Positions 6-7,652 of a stretch of DNA of 7,652 bases are shown here, piece by piece (within the stretch, counting starts at the first letter, position 1; each line of letters opens with the position of its first letter). The DNA lies in assembly GCA_049974095.1 (NCBI GenBank), contig JBMFJD010000009.1, positions 27,397 through 35,048 on the forward strand. The letters are read 5' to 3'. The translations under genes were made by a program, and so were the position numbers. The DNA comes from Nanopusillaceae archaeon. GTDB taxonomy: Archaea; Nanobdellota; Nanobdellia; Nanobdellales; Nanobdellaceae. Below the pieces are notes generated by a model. That model made no database searches and was not told where the DNA came from. It worked only from the letters and a program-made list of their open reading frames with translations.

Positions 6-71
6 ATGAAAAAGGCTAGATTTTTTGTTGTACTTTTATTATCTCTATTTTTAGTTAAATCTATCTTCTCT
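6..71 (+). other. Predicted Sec-type signal peptide of the 1251-aa protein (aa 1-22)
   Basis: MKKAR (positive n-region), FFVVLLLSLFLV (h-region), KSIFS (c-region), followed by QNYPY. The cleavage position was estimated by eye only. Confidence 0.6.
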
Positions 72-3000
72 CAAAATTATCCATATACTAATTATTCTGT
101 AATTACTATACAAAATAATGTTAATTCTAACCTTTATAATTATCCTATCTTAATTACATTAAACAATACCCAAACTTTAATGACTAATGGATATTTAAAT
201 CCTACATGTACTAACTTAATATTTCAACAGAACGGACAGGAATTACCTTATTTTGTTCAAACATGTGGTTATATATCTGTAAGCTCATCTATTGGTTTTG
301 GTAATACAAATATGCCCTTATCTAATAATCCAACAATTCCCGTTAGCTTATCTACTGTTAATGGTTCTTGGTGGGGAAATAATGTATGGACTGGATCTTC
401 TCAGGATTCCTATGCATCTATTAGTCTAAATCTCAATGGTTATGCATATCCTATATGGTTAGAGGTAAATACAAGTGGACCTGAATATGCAGTATGGGTA
501 AATGGTCAATATGTATATAATAGTAATCCATGGAACTTTAGTTATAATTCTCAACAACCAGCAAATACGACAGATCAGATATTTGATATAACAAATTATA
601 TAGTACAAAATAGTACAAATAATATATTAATATTTGCTACTAGTAATTCAACAAGTAATTATCTATCATATCAAATTATAATACCATCTGCAAATGTTAC
701 TATTTCTAGTAATGGTGTATATTACTTACCCGGTACAATTTGGGTAAATATACCTTCTATACCCGCAAATAATTATACAAATGTATATTTATTGTTAACA
801 TATCCAAATACATCTACTATTGTTAATAATATGTCAAATGTATTTACATATGGAACACACAAGATATCTAATACATATAATGATGTTGATATAATAAAAG
901 ATACAGTATTTTCTGATGTACCTGGTAGTGAATATGGATATGAACAATGGGTATTAACTCCTTTCCTATACCAAGTGAATGATTATTGTTCTAATAGTAA
1001 TTATTATCTTGTACCATATGAAATTACAAGTATTTCTATACCAGTAAATAAAGGTAAATATACTCTATCCGGTGTAAATATTGGTTATTACTTATCATCA
1101 TATTTACCAAGTACTAGTGTTGGTCCTGAACAATTCATTGCTGTTCAACAAAATTATACCACTAAAGTAAACTCCTGGTCTAGTATAAATATTAATTTAC
1201 CAACACCTATATTCTGGTTATATGGATATTATCTTAATTTAATATTTAATAGACCTCCTATAGGTGGTGCTGGTGAGATATTTGGTATTTCTGGTATGAA
1301 TGCAACAGGATTATATGGAGTTACATCTAATGGTTATTATCCATTATATAATATACCTGTAAAATCCTCCAATATTATTCCACTCTCTTACATTACTGGA
1401 TACTTTAGACCATATATATCACCTGAACCTATGGTTTCTATGAGTGTACTATTAAATATAACCAATGCTACAAACATATCTGCTCCTATATCAATAAATA
1501 TACAATTCCCACAACAAAACTCTACAGTTGCAATATTACCAAATAATCAAATATTACAACCAATTGTTATAATAAACTCTACACTTCCAATAAATAGTTG
1601 TAATATGACATTATATAATAGTGTAAGTGTAATATATAATGGTATATGTACTAATTCAATAAATGTTACTGGTATACAATCTGGATTCTATACATTATCT
1701 GTATCTGCATCAAATCAATATAATTCTACAAATGCTAGTGTATCATTCTATATGACAATTGCAAATGGAGAGTATAACTTTACTTATATAACATATCCAT
1801 CTACTGTTCCATCTATACCATTCTATATTAATATTTCTACAACATGTACCAATAATATCTGTGCTCCTGGACAAGTATCTTTAATAACTCCTGTAGCATG
1901 TTATACTCCAACACCAACTATTAATATACCTGAAATGTTGCCTGGACAAATATTTAATACATCTTTTATTGTTCAATGTGCATATACAACATATCCATAT
2001 GTATTTAATGTTAGTTTCTACTTAGCTGGAAGTTTATTCTCTACACAAAGTATAAGTCTAAATGGACCAACACTATCTTTATCATATAATGTAACTAATG
2101 GTAATCTATATGTATATGCATATCCATCAGGATGGGGACAAAATATAACATTACTTGGTACTGTACAACAAGGATGGGTTATGAATAGTACAACTACTCA
2201 GAGTCAATTCTATGTAAATATTTCTGATGATACTCAATCCTTAATATATAGTAGTCCTGCAATACCGGGACAAACATATGCAGTATATGCACAAGTATAT
2301 TCTCCTCAATTCTTTGATACATATCCAATACAAAGTATATTTGCAACAATACAAGCAACTCAACCGCCTACTATATATTCAGTTACTGCTCCATCTACTA
2401 ATTATAATGGATTATTAACTAATATTTGTTATAATGTTTCAGATCAAATTGTAGTAACAAATGTATATGGATATTATGTAAATAGTTTAGGACAAACAAT
2501 ATATCTATTTAATAATACATACTTTAATCAAACTGTATATGCATGTACTCCAGTTAATTTAACCTTAGGTAATTATTCTATATATGTAAAAGCATGTGAT
2601 TATTCTGGTTTATGTTCTATATTCCCACCGGTACCTGTAAGTATTGTTCCATATCCTCCATATACTATTATAATATATCCATCTAATGTATCTATATTCC
2701 ATTCATCTCCACAAGTAATAAGTATATATTATTCTCATCCATTAGAGCGATATACATCATGTATTATAACATCAAGTAGTGGAATAATCAATATGAAAGC
2801 TACATTATATAATAATACAAATAATACTATTGCATTTTCATTCTCTCCAGGAGAATATAACCTATTTATTACATGTAGTTCAAATTATACTGCAGAAACA
2901 ATTCCATTTACAATAATCTATAATTATTTACCACCAATGATTAATTCTGTAAATATATCAAATGGATACTTAATACTTAATGTATCATCAGATGTTGGAT

Positions 3001-3761
3001 TAGCTAGCATAACATATAATATTACTGTTGGTAATACTACTAATACATATGATCAAACATTATCTGGAACATCTGCAATAATACAAATACCTTTACCAAC
3101 TGGATCATTTACTATTAGTGGATATATATATGATATATCTGGTTTGTCTATGCCATTTATATATGGAGTATCTGGCGTGTCTGTAATATCTACAAATAGT
3201 AGTATTACAAATTCAGCTAGTGGTACTTCTTCATATGTACCACTATTGTTACCAAGTATTAATGTATCTGAAACACCCAAAGGATTAATGGTAACTGCAA
3301 TGGCAGTATCTAAATATTATCCAGTAAACTGTACAATAGAACCACTTAATACAACCGTCAGATTAGATAACTCATTACCATATGCATCAATAATACCAAA
3401 TGCTCCTACTGGTACATATCCTATATATGCTGTATGTACAGATCCAGCAGGTGATATTGCAACATCTAATACTGTACCTGTAAATATATCGCCTGATTAC
3501 TTACAATTTATTGGAACAGCATATGCAATTGCAAATCAAAATACATTATATTCATTACCAATTCTAGGTATAATATTTGCAATACTCGGATATTTATTTA
3601 GATCAAAGACCTTGTTCTTCTCTGGAACAGAATTAGCATTGACAACACCAATAATATATGCAATACTGTCAACAATGAGTCCATTATTTATTGGTCTATC
3701 TATTGTACCGGCAATTATTGGGGCTTATATATTATATAAATATATATTGCCATTATGGTAG
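6..3761 (+). CDS. Giant secreted, C-terminally membrane-anchored, heavily N-glycosylatable multidomain surface/envelope protein; no named homologue recognised
   Basis: The ORF is 1251 codons, far too long to be chance in AT-rich DNA. The N-terminus MKKARFFVVLLLSLFLVKSIFS/QN looks like a Sec signal peptide: basic n-region, hydrophobic core, small residues before a likely cut. I hand-counted about four dozen N-x-S/T sequons. Charged residues are very scarce: aa 481-910 hold about 1 Lys, 0 Arg and 7 Asp/Glu by my count. Cys residues fall in pairs within modules, for example CDYSGLC. The C-terminus has 2-3 hydrophobic helices. Only 5 nt lie upstream, so the promoter is outside the window. Confidence 0.85.
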   Translation: MKKARFFVVLLLSLFLVKSIFSQNYPYTNYSVITIQNNVNSNLYNYPILITLNNTQTLMTNGYLNPTCTNLIFQQNGQELPYFVQTCGYISVSSSIGFGNTNMPLSNNPTIPVSLSTVNGSWWGNNVWTGSSQDSYASISLNLNGYAYPIWLEVNTSGPEYAVWVNGQYVYNSNPWNFSYNSQQPANTTDQIFDITNYIVQNSTNNILIFATSNSTSNYLSYQIIIPSANVTISSNGVYYLPGTIWVNIPSIPANNYTNVYLLLTYPNTSTIVNNMSNVFTYGTHKISNTYNDVDIIKDTVFSDVPGSEYGYEQWVLTPFLYQVNDYCSNSNYYLVPYEITSISIPVNKGKYTLSGVNIGYYLSSYLPSTSVGPEQFIAVQQNYTTKVNSWSSININLPTPIFWLYGYYLNLIFNRPPIGGAGEIFGISGMNATGLYGVTSNGYYPLYNIPVKSSNIIPLSYITGYFRPYISPEPMVSMSVLLNITNATNISAPISINIQFPQQNSTVAILPNNQILQPIVIINSTLPINSCNMTLYNSVSVIYNGICTNSINVTGIQSGFYTLSVSASNQYNSTNASVSFYMTIANGEYNFTYITYPSTVPSIPFYINISTTCTNNICAPGQVSLITPVACYTPTPTINIPEMLPGQIFNTSFIVQCAYTTYPYVFNVSFYLAGSLFSTQSISLNGPTLSLSYNVTNGNLYVYAYPSGWGQNITLLGTVQQGWVMNSTTTQSQFYVNISDDTQSLIYSSPAIPGQTYAVYAQVYSPQFFDTYPIQSIFATIQATQPPTIYSVTAPSTNYNGLLTNICYNVSDQIVVTNVYGYYVNSLGQTIYLFNNTYFNQTVYACTPVNLTLGNYSIYVKACDYSGLCSIFPPVPVSIVPYPPYTIIIYPSNVSIFHSSPQVISIYYSHPLERYTSCIITSSSGIINMKATLYNNTNNTIAFSFSPGEYNLFITCSSNYTAETIPFTIIYNYLPPMINSVNISNGYLILNVSSDVGLASITYNITVGNTTNTYDQTLSGTSAIIQIPLPTGSFTISGYIYDISGLSMPFIYGVSGVSVISTNSSITNSASGTSSYVPLLLPSINVSETPKGLMVTAMAVSKYYPVNCTIEPLNTTVRLDNSLPYASIIPNAPTGTYPIYAVCTDPAGDIATSNTVPVNISPDYLQFIGTAYAIANQNTLYSLPILGIIFAILGYLFRSKTLFFSGTELALTTPIIYAILSTMSPLFIGLSIVPAIIGAYILYKYILPLW
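75..809 (+). other. N-terminal DUF2341-like segment interrupted by a jelly-roll (galactose-binding-domain-like) module
   Basis: aa 24-88 (YTNYSVITIQNN..LYNYPILITLNN...NLIFQQNGQELPYFVQ) and aa 243-268 (GTIWVNIPSIPANNYTNVYLLLTYPN) resemble the two halves of the DUF2341 pattern (itI.N...l.nfpvli.l ... dirF.d.dG..LpY.ie ... vWVkvPsipa....iylyYgn). Between them, aa ~140-213 (YPIWLEVNTSGPEYAVWVNGQYVYNS...QIFDITNYIVQNSTNNILIFATS) resembles the GH2-N/CBM-type jelly-roll pattern (a.VwvNG..v ... fDiT..l..g.N.l.v). These are pattern matches by eye, not profile searches. Confidence 0.35.
1473..3500 (+). other. Array of about seven tandem Ig/PKD-like beta-sandwich modules (aa ~490-1165)
   Basis: A strand motif G-x-[YF]-x-hydrophobic-x-hydrophobic, often followed by D-x-x-G, recurs at about 95-100-aa spacing. 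Examples are GFYTLSVSASN (aa 560), GQIFNTSFIVQCAY (647), GQTYAVYAQVYS (755), GNYSIYVKACDYSGL (855), GEYNLFITCSSN (949), GSFTISGYIYDISGL (1033) and GTYPIYAVCTDPAGD (1136). Confidence 0.5.
3546..3755 (+). other. C-terminal membrane-anchor bundle of the 1251-aa protein (2-3 TM helices, aa ~1181-1250)
   Basis: The hydrophobic segments are LPILGIIFAILGYLF, then a basic loop RSK, then LALTTPIIYAILSTMSPLFI and GLSIVPAIIGAYILYKYIL. Confidence 0.6.
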
Positions 3762-4003
3762 ATAAGAAATTAAAGGAAGAGGCTGCAAAATTTGTTGAAA
3801 AAAGAATTAGATTAGGTTTTGAAACAGAGAAATTACAAAAAAATTATATGAGGAATGTTGCTAAATTCTTAGGATTACCAGTTTCTAAAGTAGAAAAATC
3901 TATGGCAGTACAACACTATTATGAGGTTATAAGAAAAAGTAAGCCTGAAATGGCTAAAAAGATGGTTGCTAAATTATTAGAAAGATGGAAAGAAACAGAG
4001 TAA
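3755..4003 (+). CDS. Small K/E-rich helical cytoplasmic protein, possible helix-turn-helix DNA-binding protein
   Basis: The ORF is 82 aa. Its ATG lies inside the sequence ATGGTAG that also carries the upstream stop (a 7-nt overlap), and its 3' end overlaps the next start by 19 nt. The composition (K, E, A, R rich) is typical of a cytoplasmic protein and contrasts sharply with its neighbours. The segment MRNVAKFLGLPVSKVEKSMAVQHYY fits a helix-turn-helix pattern (hydrophobic-A-x-x-L-G-hydrophobic-x-x-x-x-V). Confidence 0.65.
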   Translation: MVDKKLKEEAAKFVEKRIRLGFETEKLQKNYMRNVAKFLGLPVSKVEKSMAVQHYYEVIRKSKPEMAKKMVAKLLERWKETE

Positions 4004-4716
4004 TAGGTTTATCTATAGATTTATTTAAGTATATTGTTGTAGTTACAATATTAGCATATGCATGGTATCTTGTAGCTGCAATAGTACAACATGGATATCC
4101 TGTACAGGTAATTGTACAATTACAAGAAACACAACAAATCTATCTATATTATATTATACTTGCTACAATTGCAATGCTATATTATGTAGCATCCGCATTA
4201 TTAGATAAATCATATGCTCCAACATATTCAAAATTATTTAGTAAGACTCAATTATTCTGGGCAATAGTATTTATTCTTGTATATTCTATAGCATATTTAT
4301 TTGGGTTATTCAGTAATGGATTTCCACAATTAGCTACTATTGCAACAGCATTACCATTTGCAATCGTACTAGGTGTACAGGGTTTAGTAGAGAATATGTT
4401 TTTCATAGGTACATTAGGATTTGGTATGAAATATGAGCTAACAGAGAGAGATATATCAGGATCTATATTATTAGCAGCAATATTTGTTGCATTTGTTGCA
4501 ATGATGTGGCATTTATATATCTATATCTCAGTAACGATGGTTGGAGGAACATTATATAATGTAATACAAGTAGCAGCATCTGTATTTACTTTCTTCTTCT
4601 TTGGAGCATTGCTATCATTTTCGAATGATAATACATGGACCTGGGATATAGTACACTTTACAGTTAATTTCTTGGTAGCTCTGGCAGGGGCACATGGTTA
4701 TGTTATTATATTCTAA
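3985..4716 (+). CDS. Polytopic (about 7 TM) membrane protein, candidate divergent CPBP-family (CAAX protease / Abi) intramembrane glutamic protease
   Basis: The protein is 243 aa with about seven hydrophobic helices and no Cys. Polar residues inside the last four helices follow the CPBP motif order. V-E136-N-M-F-F-I-G (nt 4390 gag) corresponds to motif 1, EExxxR. M-M-W-H176 (nt 4510 cat) sits at the end of the next helix and corresponds to motif 2, FxxxH. H224-F-T-V-N228 (nt 4654-4668) in the last helix corresponds to motif 3, HxxxN/D. Motif 1 lacks the second Glu and the Arg, and motif 2 lacks the Phe at -4. The CDS call is strong. The family call is a by-eye motif match. Confidence 0.8.
   Translation: MERNRVIGLSIDLFKYIVVVTILAYAWYLVAAIVQHGYPVQVIVQLQETQQIYLYYIILATIAMLYYVASALLDKSYAPTYSKLFSKTQLFWAIVFILVYSIAYLFGLFSNGFPQLATIATALPFAIVLGVQGLVENMFFIGTLGFGMKYELTERDISGSILLAAIFVAFVAMMWHLYIYISVTMVGGTLYNVIQVAASVFTFFFFGALLSFSNDNTWTWDIVHFTVNFLVALAGAHGYVIIF
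4703..4712 (+). promoter_or_regulatory. Possible internal TATA-like box for a leaderless transcript of the 472-aa gene
   Basis: The sequence ttattatatt is centred about 25 nt upstream of the ATG at 4732. The intergenic gap is only 15 nt and has no Shine-Dalgarno-like GGTG/GAGG. TATA-like strings are common in DNA this AT-rich, so support is weak. Confidence 0.25.
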
Positions 4717-4731
4717 ATACAATAATATATA

Positions 4732-6150
4732 ATGAGAGTTAAAATTGAGTATATTCTTGTATCATTGTTGTTATTAGGATTCATTCTTCCTATTATTGTA
4801 GTTAATATATCATCCCTTCATTCATTTAATATACAATGTTCCTTTTTAGCAAATAGTGTAAATGTTGGTAGCGAAATACAATACCAATGTTATGGTACTT
4901 ATCCTTTATCTTCAGGAGATAATATATTTACTATATCTTTACCAGGTATTGGAAATATACAAACATCTTATCTCTCTTTTGTAAATGTTACAGAGCCTAT
5001 ATATAATATTAATATATCTGGATATGTGTCTCCAAATAGTCAAATAACTCAACAAGTCTCTATACCATCTACAGCTACAAATATACTAATATATGGTTCT
5101 TTACAAGGTATACAATCTAATGGTCAATACCCATCTGGTGCATCGATAACTGGTGGTAATTATCCTTTATACTGTAGTCCAACATGTATCTATAATTCTA
5201 GACTAATAATTAATAGTACTGGTAACTATGTCCTAACTATATCTTCTGGTACTGGTGGTGGAGGAGTTAATTATGATATATATGGATCTTATAATTTACC
5301 ATATCCAACTGCAAACATACTTTTAAATGGTATGTTAATACAGTCATTAACATTATCTTCATCTCAAATCATTTCTCTACCTGTTAATTCTTTATCTACC
5401 GTAGATGTACAAGTTAATGGTCAACCAAATGCAAATGTTTTGTTTAATATTATACAAAATTGTTTCTTAGGTGGTGGAAATTGGAGTTGTAGTGAATATA
5501 CAAATCCCCAAAATAGTTCAGAATCTATATTGGATTGTACTACACAAGTAACATCTAATTGTAATTTAAACAATATTAATATTCAGGTACCTATTAGTAT
5601 ACCACAAGTTAAATATTTTTCACAGGCAGTTCAAACCAACGTTTATGTAAATGGAGTGCAGGTTAGTGCTGATACTTCAGGATTAACATCTGTAGCTCCT
5701 TACTTTGTAATATATTCTTTAAATCAAGGAACAAACAATATCGAGATTAAGTCAATATTACCGTTCATATTATCTGGTGCACAGACAGCTATTGGTTCAT
5801 GTCAATTATCTGCAACAAGTATAGATATACAAACACTTTCTGGTCAACCTGTTAATTATACATTATATATTAAAAATGTAGGAAACAGTCCTATACAAAT
5901 ACAAATAGCTGTGCCTGTATCTTTAAGTAGATCAATTTCTGTTAGTCCACAAAGTACTTTAATAGATCCGGGACAAACCATTGGCATTAATATATATATA
6001 AAAGGGCCAATATCTGGTGAGATATATATAAATGGATGTTCATATGAGAGTATTACAATGCCTATATCTGTATCGTATACCAATCCATATATTATATTGA
6101 TTGTACTTGCGGCTGGACTAATTGTTTTATTCCTTGCATTTCACAGATGA
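4732..6150 (+). CDS. Secreted glycoprotein with a C-terminal CARDB/NEW3-like beta-sandwich and a single C-terminal TM anchor
   Basis: The protein is 472 aa. It has an N-terminal hydrophobic segment (MRVKIEYILVSLLLLGFILPIIVV), many N-x-S/T sequons, and ten Cys arranged as local pairs (IQC..YQC, YCSPTC, NCF..WSC, DCT..NCN). aa 356-449 read SCQLSATSIDIQTLSGQPVNYTLYIKNVGNSPIQIQIAVPVS...LIDPGQTIGINIYIKGP...ITMPISVSY, which fits the CARDB/NEW3 pattern (G..v.ltv.V.N.G........v..p......l.pGes..v.v.v). The anchor PYIILIVLAAGLIVLFLAF is followed by the tail HR. Confidence 0.85.
   Translation: MRVKIEYILVSLLLLGFILPIIVVNISSLHSFNIQCSFLANSVNVGSEIQYQCYGTYPLSSGDNIFTISLPGIGNIQTSYLSFVNVTEPIYNINISGYVSPNSQITQQVSIPSTATNILIYGSLQGIQSNGQYPSGASITGGNYPLYCSPTCIYNSRLIINSTGNYVLTISSGTGGGGVNYDIYGSYNLPYPTANILLNGMLIQSLTLSSSQIISLPVNSLSTVDVQVNGQPNANVLFNIIQNCFLGGGNWSCSEYTNPQNSSESILDCTTQVTSNCNLNNINIQVPISIPQVKYFSQAVQTNVYVNGVQVSADTSGLTSVAPYFVIYSLNQGTNNIEIKSILPFILSGAQTAIGSCQLSATSIDIQTLSGQPVNYTLYIKNVGNSPIQIQIAVPVSLSRSISVSPQSTLIDPGQTIGINIYIKGPISGEIYINGCSYESITMPISVSYTNPYIILIVLAAGLIVLFLAFHR
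5797..6078 (+). other. CARDB/NEW3-like Ig-fold domain of the 472-aa protein (aa ~356-449)
   Basis: See the motif alignment described for the parent CDS. This is a by-eye pattern match. Confidence 0.45.
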
Positions 6151-6566
6151 TAGTAAAGGTAGGAAATAAATATTATTATATTGGAGATAAGGTAGCGAGA
6201 ACTATATTAAAAAGAATCTCTGATAATAAAATACATACAATAGAATCTATTAAAGATATAAAGGAACAATATGGAAAAAGGGTTTATGATGTACTATGGA
6301 CTTTAAATAAAGAAGGTATTGTTGATATAAAGAAAACATTTACTGGTAAACTATTAATGAAATCTAAGGCTAAGGAAGTAAAATATATCAATATTTTATT
6401 AATTATCTCAATATTTACTTCTACAGGTATATATCTATTATCTCTATTATTGATAAAACAAGAGTTATTTAGATATATTGGTGTTCTAATTGGTTTGGCG
6501 TCTACTATAGAAATAATATTATTATTATTAAGTAAGAAGGTATTTGATGATATGGAGACTTTATAA
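6147..6566 (+). CDS. Membrane-tethered winged-helix-like protein (N-terminal wHTH-like domain plus C-terminal TM hairpin)
   Basis: The protein is 139 aa, and its start overlaps the upstream stop as ATGA. aa 12-66 (ARTILKRISDNKIHTIESIKDIKEQYGKRVYDVLWTLNKEGIVDIKKTFTGKLL) have the helix / helix-turn-helix / beta-wing layout of MarR/TrmB/PadR-type winged helices. aa 80-103 (YINILLIISIFTSTGIYLLSLLLI) and 108-128 (FRYIGVLIGLASTIEIILLLL) form two TM helices, followed by a short acidic tail KKVFDDMETL. Confidence 0.75.
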   Translation: MIVKVGNKYYYIGDKVARTILKRISDNKIHTIESIKDIKEQYGKRVYDVLWTLNKEGIVDIKKTFTGKLLMKSKAKEVKYINILLIISIFTSTGIYLLSLLLIKQELFRYIGVLIGLASTIEIILLLLSKKVFDDMETL

Positions 6567-6567
6567 A

Positions 6568-6573
6568 TTTTTT
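6568..6573 (+). terminator. Oligo-T tract (T6) immediately after the stop of the 139-aa gene; candidate archaeal intrinsic terminator
   Basis: The sequence reads taa-a-tttttt-g, with the tract starting one nt after the stop codon (6564-6566). It sits in the only sizeable intergenic gap in the window (6567-6632). Runs of five or more T are known termination signals for archaeal RNA polymerase. Confidence 0.45.
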
Positions 6574-6597: not shown

Positions 6598-6632
6598 TTT
6601 TTATTATAAATATCTATGAGTAATAAATATAT
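6598..6632 (+). promoter_or_regulatory. Archaeal TATA-box promoter for a leaderless transcript of the downstream gene
   Basis: In tttttattataaata, the core attataaa at 6603-6610 is centred about 26-27 nt upstream of the ATG at 6633. That is the canonical TATA-to-start distance in Sulfolobales-type promoters when the transcript starts at or next to the start codon. There is no Shine-Dalgarno motif. An in-frame stop (taa, 6624-6626) closes the frame just upstream. Confidence 0.55.
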
Positions 6633-7652
6633 ATGGCAATGACAAAGCAGACAGAGTATATATTAGCAGCACTATTTTTGTTATTAATAGGGGGTATAGC
6701 ATACATGTCATATACGGGAGTAAAGCCATCGGCACCAGTATCAGTAGCCTGTGGTCCAATACTATCACAGGTATACGGACTGTCAGGACAAGCAGTAAGT
6801 GAAGTAGCAAAAGTATTAAATTCAGTAAACAATAATCCAGTACAAGGTGCTAACATATATGCATTTAGCACACAACCATATTACTGGGGACAATCACAAG
6901 TATGGAGTTTAGCATCATCTATGGTATTAGGACAAACACCAACAGCAGTTACAGGAACACAAGGTAATGCTACATTACAAGTAACAATTCCATCAGGAAA
7001 TCAAACATCAACAGAATATTTAATTGTAACAGCACCAGGATACTGGACAGAATTATACACATTATCGACAGGATTTAATTCATTATTCTCAGCATCATCT
7101 GAACAACAATGTGTTCAATTATACCCATATTCAACAATACAAGACTTGTTACCATCTTTAATACAAGTACAAGCACAAGATGTATTAACAGGAAAGATAG
7201 TACAATTAAACCAAATAACATTGGAACCAGTTGGATCACTAGTACCAAATATTACAACAGTTTCATTAGGAGTAAACTCTAACCAATTCGGAGCATCATT
7301 AACAGGAGGATACGTTGGATTCGTAAGCGGTGGATCATTAAGAATTACAGGTATTAAATTAATAGGATTAAACATGTCAAATGACGGAATACAACAAGTA
7401 TCATTAACAATAACAGCAAATGGACAAACATTATACAATGGTGTAGTATATAATGCATTAAACTCTAACTTACCATTAGGATCAGGATCAGGAACATACA
7501 CAATATCTGTACCAAATGGAGTAGTTGAAATACCAAATGGAGGACAATTACAAATACAATTACAAGTAGTTGCAAACACTAATACAGAACAAACAGCAGG
7601 ATACTTATATCCAGGAGAACAATTCATGCAAATACAATTACAATTAGCAGAC
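6633..7652 (+). CDS. N-terminally anchored, beta-rich, Q/G/T/V-rich extracellular protein, 3'-truncated by the window edge; likely abundantly expressed structural or surface protein. Not in the supplied ORF track.
   Basis: I translated 340 consecutive sense codons by hand with no stop through the last base of the window: MAMTKQTEYILAALFLLLIGGIAYMSYTGVKPSAPVSVACGPILSQVYGLSGQAVSEVAKVLNSVNNNPVQGANIYAFSTQPYYWGQSQVWSLASSMVLGQTPTAVTGTQGNATLQVTIPSGNQTSTEYLIVTAPGYWTELYTLSTGFNSLFSASSEQQCVQLYPYSTIQDLLPSLIQVQAQDVLTGKIVQLNQITLEPVGSLVPNITTVSLGVNSNQFGASLTGGYVGFVSGGSLRITGIKLIGLNMSNDGIQQVSLTITANGQTLYNGVVYNALNSNLPLGSGSGTYTISVPNGVVEIPNGGQLQIQLQVVANTNTEQTAGYLYPGEQFMQIQLQLAD. The gene shows strong, uniform codon bias (caa, aca, gga, gta, tta, cca, tca, gca), has one N-terminal TM helix (aa 9-27), and has a promoter and terminator context upstream. 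Met3 (6639) is an alternative start. Confidence 0.85.
   Translation, partial: MAMTKQTEYILAALFLLLIGGIAYMSYTGVKPSAPVSVACGPILSQVYGLSGQAVSEVAKVLNSVNNNPVQGANIYAFSTQPYYWGQSQVWSLASSMVLGQTPTAVTGTQGNATLQVTIPSGNQTSTEYLIVTAPGYWTELYTLSTGFNSLFSASSEQQCVQLYPYSTIQDLLPSLIQVQAQDVLTGKIVQLNQITLEPVGSLVPNITTVSLGVNSNQFGASLTGGYVGFVSGGSLRITGIKLIGLNMSNDGIQQVSLTITANGQTLYNGVVYNALNSNLPLGSGSGTYTISVPNGVVEIPNGGQLQIQLQVVANTNTEQTAGYLYPGEQFMQIQLQLAD

Follow-up and report, generated by a model that had tools for sequence, protein, structure and literature searches.

Which strand is coding at the 3' end of this stretch of DNA, and what does the coding strand make? The stretch (hereafter the window, meaning all of the 7,652 nucleotides (nt) analysed) comes from contig JBMFJD010000009.1 of a Nanopusillaceae archaeon. 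For its last part the list of open reading frames (ORFs) offers three minus-strand ORFs, 7115..7627, 6614..6871 and 6604..6810. A first-pass annotation, made from the letters and this list, proposed instead that a plus-strand gene absent from the list starts at 6633 and runs to the last base of the window, and that the listed ORFs are shadows of it. We regard it as practically certain that 6633-7652(+) is a real, conserved protein-coding gene and that the ORFs on the opposite strand are its shadows. The evidence for both points is given below, followed by what can be said about the protein, about the mobile element that appears to carry its gene and about the alternatives. The coordinates of all the features are collected in Table 1.

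A plus-strand gene cut by the end of the window

The start codon is the ATG at 6633-6635 and the last codon in the window is the gac at 7650-7652; from one to the other the frame holds 340 sense codons and 0 stops, which agrees to the base with the first-pass annotation. The upstream closure of the frame by the taa at 6624-6626 is also correct, and a second in-frame stop precedes it at 6621-6623, so that the sequence around the start reads ...gag taa taa ata tat ATG gca atg aca aag... The remaining five frames of 6633-7652 contain 38, 14, 55, 3 and 13 stops. When the whole window was shuffled 200 times, the longest run without a stop, all frames considered, had a mean of 90 and a maximum of 143 codons, against the 340 codons of the gene.

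A search of the plus-strand translation against archaeal and viral proteins had been proposed as a check. Among 5.8 billion proteins we found nine homologues of 336-367 amino acids (aa), with E values from 2e-197 to 2e-74, 41-92% identity and 93-100% coverage of the fragment; a tblastn search of phage and archaeal-virus records gave no match. Four more distant homologues, of 335-361 aa, came from a profile search of 1.8 billion cluster representatives and bring the family to 13 members of 335-367 aa, all 13 of which have the same C-terminal Gly. The closest full-length copy (protein P0001, locus L001) has 353 aa and 92% identity in a gap-free, colinear alignment with the fragment, and L001 and the gene of the window are 94.5% identical over 1020 nt. 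P0001 runs 13 residues beyond the fragment, PMQNSPITFTVTG, and then stops; thus, the window holds 96% of the gene and lacks its last 13 codons and the stop. According to the homologues, the full-length product would end in ...ADPMQNSPITFTVTG, followed by the stop. The absence of the gene from the ORF list is explained in the same way as the first-pass annotation had suspected, because the list leaves out ORFs that run off the source sequence and the window ends 13 codons early.

Regarding the conservation of the frame, it is unbroken in all nine DNA copies that were checked (the window, L001, L004, L005, L002, L003, L006, L008 and L009), down to an amino-acid identity of 43%. In seven loci the pipelines of JGI, NCBI and ENA have annotated the gene on the plus strand at the homologous place, and none on the opposite strand. 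In one database entry, P0006 (336 aa), the start was set at an internal Met, and the DNA of L008 has the same MAM... start upstream of it. Codon-position counts against the 94.5%-identical copy are weak at telling the two strands apart.

The minus-strand ORFs

The minus-strand ORFs are compositional shadows of the A-biased sense gene. They fall into two frames, a point on which the first-pass annotation has to be corrected: 7115..7627(-) and 6614..6871(-) share one frame, whereas 6604..6810(-) shares the other with 7075..7248(-), an ORF that is added to the list, together with 7109..7282(+), when the minimum is set at 50 aa. In the frame of 7115..7627(-) each codon pairs with the third position of a sense codon and positions 1-2 of the next one. 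In both out-of-register antisense frames the images of the stops are TTA, CTA and TCA, which place T or C at the sense third position; this rule had been stated for 7115..7627(-) and it is valid beyond it, for the second frame too. These frames stay open largely because 68% of the sense codons end in A and stops there need T or C at the third position. The in-register antisense frame, with its 55 stops, owes them to the codons TTA (Leu) and TCA (Ser), which are preferred in the sense gene.

The bias itself is clear when the gene is compared with the five upstream genes: third-position A amounts to 68% against 39-52%, T to 17% against 28-49%, C to 9% against 2-7% and G to 7% against 5-18%. The bias described by the first-pass annotation is therefore real, although its wording, that the gene uses almost only A-ending codons, was overstated. 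In order to evaluate the effect of this bias, we kept the protein sequence fixed and redrew the synonymous codons in a simulation. When they were drawn from the gene's own usage, the longest antisense runs had means of 97 and 107 codons in the two frames, with means of 8.5 and 7.2 stops. When they were drawn from the usage of the neighbours, the runs had means of 56 and 54 codons and the stops means of 17.5 and 19.5. Thus, the A-ending bias approximately doubles the expected antisense open run.

Some observations weigh against this account of the two strands. In the gene itself the antisense frame stays open for 178 codons and has 3 stops, whereas the 95th percentile of the simulated runs is 146 codons and 8.5 stops would be expected, so codon bias accounts for most of the effect but not for all of it. 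The ratio of nonsynonymous to synonymous substitution rates (dN/dS) does not separate the strands, with 0.24-0.80 for the sense and 0.30-0.73 for the antisense frame; this ratio is uninformative on strand because the wobble positions of both frames coincide and synonymous sites are constrained. Furthermore, the stop codon of the window copy lies beyond the window, and a downstream defect in this particular copy is possible.

The excess of the open run is what could be claimed for a real antisense-overlapping gene in this lineage, above all for 7115..7627(-), since resampling predicts 8.5 stops where 3 are present, the 178-codon run exceeds the 95th percentile of the simulation and all four close relatives keep 160 or more codons of the frame open. 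However, those four close copies, with 2-3 antisense stops each, are one lineage, so that the shortage of stops counts as one event with a Poisson probability of around 0.03, and in the more distant clades the number rises to 6-10, near the expectation. We read the excess openness as a single fluctuation at the level of the lineage. Across the relatives, the main antisense frame has 2-10 stops at positions that differ from one relative to another. In the region homologous to 7115..7627 we found one stop in L005, L003 and L008, three in L002 and L006 and four in L009, the one in L005 falling 12 codons past the start of the ORF. The region of 6614..6871(-) has 1-4 stops in each of L002, L003, L006, L008 and L009, and 6604..6810(-) is broken in L002, L003, L006 and L008. 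The product of 7115..7627(-) gave 0 matches in Pfam, NCBIfam and PDB, that of 6614..6871(-) no family match in Pfam or NCBIfam and that of 6604..6810(-) no match in NCBIfam; significant homology of these translations was what the first-pass annotation had named as a possible refutation. The 170-aa product contains 12.9% Pro, 11.1% Asn and 8.2% Cys, as well as CNCICNC, which is the Cys/Pro/Asn-rich composition that had been reported for it and which is expected when Gln, Thr, Gly and Val codons are read backwards. Taking into account that no pipeline called it in the seven loci either, we consider an antisense gene hardly credible, and the frames broken in relatives, the unmatched products and the simulation together bear out the description of these ORFs as shadows of the plus-strand gene.

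The protein product

The product is a membrane-anchored or secreted protein with two beta-sandwich domains, outside every known family. Its Kyte-Doolittle 19-residue mean exceeds 1.6 only at residues 7-30, with a peak of 1.98, and the N-terminus before this helix is short and polar; the single N-terminal transmembrane helix that had been predicted in the first reading is thus this segment. An AlphaFold2 model built on the nine-sequence alignment (mean predicted local distance difference test (pLDDT) 87.9, predicted template modelling score 0.78) places the helix at residues 5-28, with a coil of around 10 residues between it and the globular part. The strands of the first sandwich are at residues 54-63, 74-78, 112-118, 126-133 and 140-148 of the model, and a short helical linker (residues 157-176) joins the two sandwiches. 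The model bears out the beta-rich character that had been attributed to the product; its composition, which had been summarized as Q/G/T/V-rich, is rich in L, G, Q, S, V and T.

The sequons number exactly four, as claimed, at residues 112, 123, 206 and 247. The two cysteines, C40 and C160, are invariant and the only ones of the protein, and they would be expected to form a disulfide. Charged residues represent 5.6% of the fragment, and a low content of charged residues is usual in proteins exposed to hot acid. We favour an extracellular location because of the single transmembrane segment, the sequons, the few charged residues and the invariant cysteines. From the export-type helix and the four sequons, the product is predicted to be N-glycosylated.

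The gene marks an uncharacterised protein family, without any Pfam, NCBIfam or PHROG model, and its deposited homologues are labelled 'hypothetical'. Several candidate identities were examined and rejected. A jelly-roll viral capsid was suggested only by birnavirus VP2, with a Foldseek probability of 0.14-0.51 and a template modelling (TM) score of 0.14-0.20. Neither PDB nor the viral structure library BFVD had an archaeal virus capsid in the Foldseek top 50, and BFVD gave nothing convincing for the model. A sortase-dependent pilin does not fit a product that ends in ...FTVTG, without LPXTG, hydrophobic segment and basic tail, and the TM score to such pilins is only 0.3. A lipobox or Sec cleavage before Cys40 was discarded as well, given that residues -3 to -1 are unfitting and not conserved.

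Among the more distant sequences, the profile positions 274-343 recur in nine stretches of P0019, a protein of 4911 aa, and P0018 is a very acidic, halophile-like homologue of 335 aa that also ends in ...VTG. These two cases suggest that parts of the fold are used outside the hot-spring elements.

Table 1. Position of the features in the window (position 1 is its first letter) and the basis or a remark for each
Position	Strand	Feature	Basis or remark
6633..7652	+	Coding sequence, first 340 of ~353 codons	Cut by the window end; 0 stops
6621..6626	+	Two in-frame stops (taa taa), upstream closure of the frame	6621-6623 and 6624-6626
6604..6611	+	TATA-box-like ttataaat, candidate archaeal promoter	Centred ~26 nt 5' of ATG 6633
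6651..6722	+	N-terminal hydrophobic helix, residues 7-30, signal anchor or signal peptide	Kyte-Doolittle
6750..6752	+	Invariant Cys40	Nine-sequence alignment
6792..7076	+	First beta-sandwich, residues ~54-148	AlphaFold2, pLDDT mostly >90
6966..6974	+	N-glycosylation sequon N112-A-T	Pattern count; kept in most homologues
6999-7007	+	N-glycosylation sequon N123-Q-T	Pattern count; kept in most homologues
7110..7112	+	Invariant Cys160	Nine-sequence alignment
7161..7652	+	Second beta-sandwich, residues ~177-352, last strand outside the window	AlphaFold2; domain alone pLDDT 83.6
7248-7256	+	N-glycosylation sequon N206-I-T	Pattern count
7371-7379	+	N-glycosylation sequon N247-M-S	Pattern count
7115..7627	-	Shadow ORF, 170 aa, not a gene	Antisense frame needing T/C at sense position 3
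6614..6871	-	Shadow ORF, 85 aa	Frame shared with 7115..7627(-)
6604..6810	-	Shadow ORF, 68 aa	Other antisense frame, shared with 7075..7248(-)
6-3761	+	1251-aa protein, signal peptide, 49 N-x-S/T sequons, C-terminal multi-helix membrane region	DUF2341 sub-threshold only
3755-4003	+	82-aa basic protein	Small family
3985-4716	+	243-aa conserved polytopic membrane protein	No family match
4732-6150	+	472-aa protein, N-terminal signal anchor and C-terminal transmembrane helix	Ig-like (immunoglobulin-like) domain borderline
6147-6566	+	139-aa protein, soluble N-terminal half, hydrophobic C-terminal half	No family match

Putative expression signals and codon usage

The TATA-box-like motif upstream of the gene is conserved in L001, L004, L005 and L008, and a second motif, tttataaa, is found at 6563-6570, where it overlaps the stop codon of the preceding gene. 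The five genes upstream are tightly packed, with overlapping or abutting ends at 3755/3761, 3985/4003, 4716/4732 and 6147/6150. The gene under study is flanked by AT-rich spacers, of 66 nt upstream and around 50 nt downstream, and T-runs, a putative T-rich terminator, come after the stop codon in every relative, e.g. cctttttgacttttattttttaaatttttt. It is plausible that its own TATA-like promoter gives a leaderless or near-leaderless mRNA, an idea that is reasonable because the distance from TATA box to transcription start that is usual in archaea would put the start of the transcript at or near the ATG.

The codon usage points in the direction of high expression. The fraction of third-position A (A3) is constant across the relatives, 0.67-0.70, and the gene has the highest A3, 0.68, among the 28 genes of the 31-kb contig that carries a relative of this locus. 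The C-ending codons of Asn, Tyr, Phe and Asp are 26 of 52 in the gene and 67 of 529 in its neighbours, a pattern that suggests translational selection. Between the window and L002, L003 and L009, the proportion of synonymous differences (pS) is only 0.34-0.53 at 43-57% amino-acid identity, with a dN/dS of 0.6-0.8; so low a pS for the given protein divergence indicates a strong constraint on synonymous sites. We infer from the codon pattern that translational selection acts on this gene, which probably makes the most abundant protein of the element. By the same token, no other gene of the undescribed, Nanoarchaeota-linked element of around 31 kb seems to be as highly expressed. On balance, we lean towards an abundant extracellular glycoprotein as the nature of the product.

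The second-highest A3 of the contig, 0.63, corresponds to a 146-aa, almost wholly hydrophobic and helix-rich protein (L010 6698-7138, equivalent to L003 14520-14960), which is a candidate for another abundant protein with a membrane or structural role. NCBIfam gave no match for it, and a tblastn search of the phage and archaeal-virus collection for a relative resembling the capsid protein of spindle viruses found none.

The element and its genes

The window is colinear with L002, L003, L008 and L009, where the same order is conserved, namely the genes for the proteins of 1251, 82, 243, 472 and 139 aa followed by the gene under study. The large sequon-rich protein has 1216-1291 aa in those loci. 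Two diverged copies of the large ORF, with 62% and 40% identity, are present in one Nanopusillaceae metagenome-assembled genome (MAG), and the contigs L002 and L008 break within it, which suggests that this ORF is hypervariable. Residues 359-426 of the 472-aa protein resemble an Ig-like domain of the HYDIN/PapD/Cep192 type, with an E value of 2e-5 that is just under the Pfam cut-off; the 472-aa protein is probably a further surface protein of the same module.

The contig WOZZ01055038.1 (31,071 bp) shows the wider context. It encodes further large secreted proteins (722, 954, 908, 524 and >1015 aa) and several small hydrophobic ones. It also has genes for a ParB-N protein, for a regulator of the MarR type and, on the other strand, for an MCM-type helicase of 385 aa. 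MCM, MarR and ParB-N are the only recognisable proteins of the element, and ParB is its only PHROG match. The MCM is distant from those of archaeal tailed viruses and of an Altiarchaeum virus, to which it is 22-32% similar. A hidden Markov model of the gene family detected no paralogue in the rest of the element. Neither tRNA nor housekeeping genes were found in 28 kb of element loci, and contigs of 27.8, 28.0, 28.7 and 31.1 kb recur, two of them breaking inside the large variable ORF. Recurring contigs of around 28-31 kb without cellular genes fit an autonomous element of around 31 kb. With regard to the host, homologues of three element proteins are on a 59.9-kb contig of a MAG labelled as Nanopusillaceae, and the same MAG has the second copy of the large ORF, on a contig of 27.8 kb. 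The Nanopusillaceae are nanoarchaeal ectosymbionts of acidic hot springs. We infer that the carrier of the gene is an archaeal mobile element of around 31 kb, most likely a virus, associated with acidic hot-spring Nanopusillaceae.

Several other observations were made on these genes. The 82-aa family has at least two weaker paralogues in the 31-kb element (L010 14884-15105 and 15158-15379, phmmer E values 3e-6 and 2e-5), which share the motif ...FLG(V/L)P..., and L010 14645-14851 is alike by eye. All relatives have the genes for the 243-aa and 139-aa proteins in syntenic positions, and each of the two starts, in an operon-like manner, within the end of the gene before it. Two paralogous proteins of 130-135 aa (L010 17014-17421 and 18476-18868) flank the ParB-N gene, and their N-termini are alike by eye (...C.QII.NISKRY.VI.K.W.PD...). 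In the most distant syntenic locus (L009 8069-9980, GCA_031961245.1), the 144-aa gene is separated from the homologue of the gene under study by two inserted genes, whose proteins have 495 and 128 aa. In the region of the gene there was no Rfam family and no notable repeat. A pattern scan of the GTDB representative genomes gave no relative, and we found no paper that describes the ~31-kb element.

Proposed role and alternatives

The explanation as a whole, namely a real gene cut by the window edge, its shadow ORFs and a product that is an abundant surface glycoprotein of a mobile element, is in our opinion very probable. According to it, the gene's own promoter would give a monocistronic and probably leaderless mRNA, which would be translated at a high level. 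The product would be inserted in the membrane or exported by means of its N-terminal helix, and outside the cell it would be N-glycosylated and disulfide-bonded. The protein would then be displayed on a membrane, that of a virion envelope or that of the cell surface, with the distal beta-sandwich as a putative attachment domain. For the narrower claim that it is a virion protein we have only a tentative preference, short of an even chance. The most specific version, a major surface or envelope glycoprotein of an undescribed family of ~31-kb DNA viruses, or of virus-like vesicle-forming elements, that infect Nanopusillaceae, with a fold unrelated to known capsid and spike proteins, is slightly more doubtful.

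Several results weigh against a virus or against a precise role for the protein. We recognised no gene for a capsid protein, a packaging ATPase or an integrase in the element; since archaeal viruses commonly lack recognisable hallmark genes, this is still compatible with a virus. Megablast and blastn searches with the window gave no match among 50,697 phage and archaeal-virus records, tblastn searches with the product found none in the phage and archaeal-virus records of GenBank or in the PLSDB plasmids, and no relative emerged from IMG/VR when it was scanned for patterns of the single sequence and of the alignment. The product had no match in PHROGs, NCBIfam or the PDB sequence profiles, and its best Pfam hit, CBM32, has an E value of 0.025, below the cut-off. 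The structural matches are weak throughout (TM ≤0.41) and none of them is a viral capsid. Finally, the host was assigned by metagenomic binning alone.

Part of the same evidence can be used for a protein that decorates the nanoarchaeal cell, or that of another archaeon, instead of a virion, that is, a cell-surface adhesin or filament subunit from an element that is integrated or plasmid-like. Pilins, adhesins and receptor-binding proteins lead the structural matches (BcpA, Spa2, the T6 pilin, CooA and the F17b-G and UcaD lectin domains), and the element has ParB-N, MCM and MarR without recognisable capsid or packaging genes. Furthermore, the homologue on the Nanopusillaceae MAG is on a contig of 59.9 kb, longer than ~31 kb and compatible with integration, and a part of the C-terminal domain is repeated nine times in a 4911-aa protein, as happens in giant surface proteins. 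Nevertheless, every one of these structural matches is weak, with TM scores of 0.2-0.4, we recognised no assembly machinery (ATPase, platform protein, sortase, usher) among the genes of the element, and the recurrent free contigs of ~28-31 kb without cellular genes fit an autonomous element; we consider such an adhesin less likely than not, though nearly as probable as a virion protein. The N-terminal hydrophobic helix followed by a beta-sandwich is also the architecture of archaeal type IV pilins, in which a class III signal peptide is cut by the prepilin peptidase and the helix forms the core of the filament, and two clades of the family do have K/R-G four residues before a conserved Glu-Tyr with which the helix begins (QKG-IKFEY and ARG-KEMEY). 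However, in the clade of the window (MAMTKQTEY...) neither Gly nor Ala occupies the expected -1 position and the motif is wholly absent from the distant P0016, P0017 and P0018, and it is because this cleavage motif is not conserved across the family that the pilin reading fails. In addition, the ~10-residue coil separates the helix from the globular part in the model, the element has no pilus ATPase or platform gene, and archaeal pilins and archaellins are absent from the Foldseek top 50, so that a type IV pilin is very improbable. We retain the abundant surface glycoprotein of a mobile element as the best explanation.

Implications for annotation

An edge-cut gene with shadow ORFs is an ordinary phenomenon, and its interest is chiefly one of quality control: ORF tracks that run from stop to stop lose the genes at the window edges, and AT-rich, codon-biased genes then yield long antisense artefacts. 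Regarding the element, to our knowledge hardly any viruses or plasmids of Nanoarchaeota are known. If the product were a true virion surface protein, it would offer a handle to detect and purify the element, as a target for antibodies or fluorescence in situ hybridization or as a marker gene in metagenomes.

Comparison with known systems

The Nanoarchaeota virus NAV1, said to have been described by Munson-McGee et al. in 2020, is reportedly a circular dsDNA virus of 35.6 kb, a size similar to that of the element, from acidic hot springs that was assigned to Nanoarchaeota. Neither in DNA nor in protein do the window and the product resemble any record in the collection of phages and archaeal viruses, in which the inclusion of NAV1 is unconfirmed. 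The spikes of archaeal enveloped viruses, such as those of the VP4/VP5 type in the HRPV pleolipoviruses, are abundant, glycosylated, beta-rich and membrane-anchored, and they are found beside a small, very hydrophobic protein. The likeness lies in the beta-rich and probably abundant, glycosylated and membrane-anchored nature of the product and in the fact that its gene, too, has beside it that of a small, hydrophobic and codon-biased protein, the one of 146 aa with an A3 of 0.63. However, the anchor is N-terminal here and not C-terminal, there is no sequence or Foldseek match to any viral protein, and the element has no replication genes or other core genes of the pleolipovirus type.

Regarding the structure, the best whole-chain Foldseek matches are the shaft pilins of Gram-positive bacteria, BcpA (3RKP/3KPT), Spa2 (7WOI), T6 (4P0D) and SpaA (5F44), with E values from 1e-6 to 4e-4. 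Like them, this protein consists of elongated tandem Ig-like beta-sandwiches, and it ends in ...T-V-T-G. Nevertheless, the TM scores are 0.17-0.30 at 9-11% identity, the protein ends at TG without LPXTG and hydrophobic tail, its anchor is N-terminal, and its context is archaeal and contains no sortase. For the C-terminal domain alone, the best matches are the R (receptor-binding) domain of diphtheria toxin (1F0L/7K7D), arrestin-like N-lobes (4R7X/4GFX) and fimbrial lectin domains (4K0O/6H2L), with which it has in common a beta-sandwich of around 9-10 strands. With TM scores of 0.26-0.41 and an rmsd (root-mean-square deviation) of 6-15 Å this is a generic fold from which no binding site can be transferred, and the likeness to adhesin and receptor-binding modules is generic.

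The closest known cases are those of annotation. Shadow ORFs opposite codon-biased genes occupy the same frames, in which stops need T or C at the sense third position, and are likewise unconserved in relatives; there is no essential difference here, except that the open run is somewhat longer than codon usage alone predicts. The genes that are lost from ORF lists at contig ends present the same situation as 6633-7652(+), since their stop is missing because the sequence ends.

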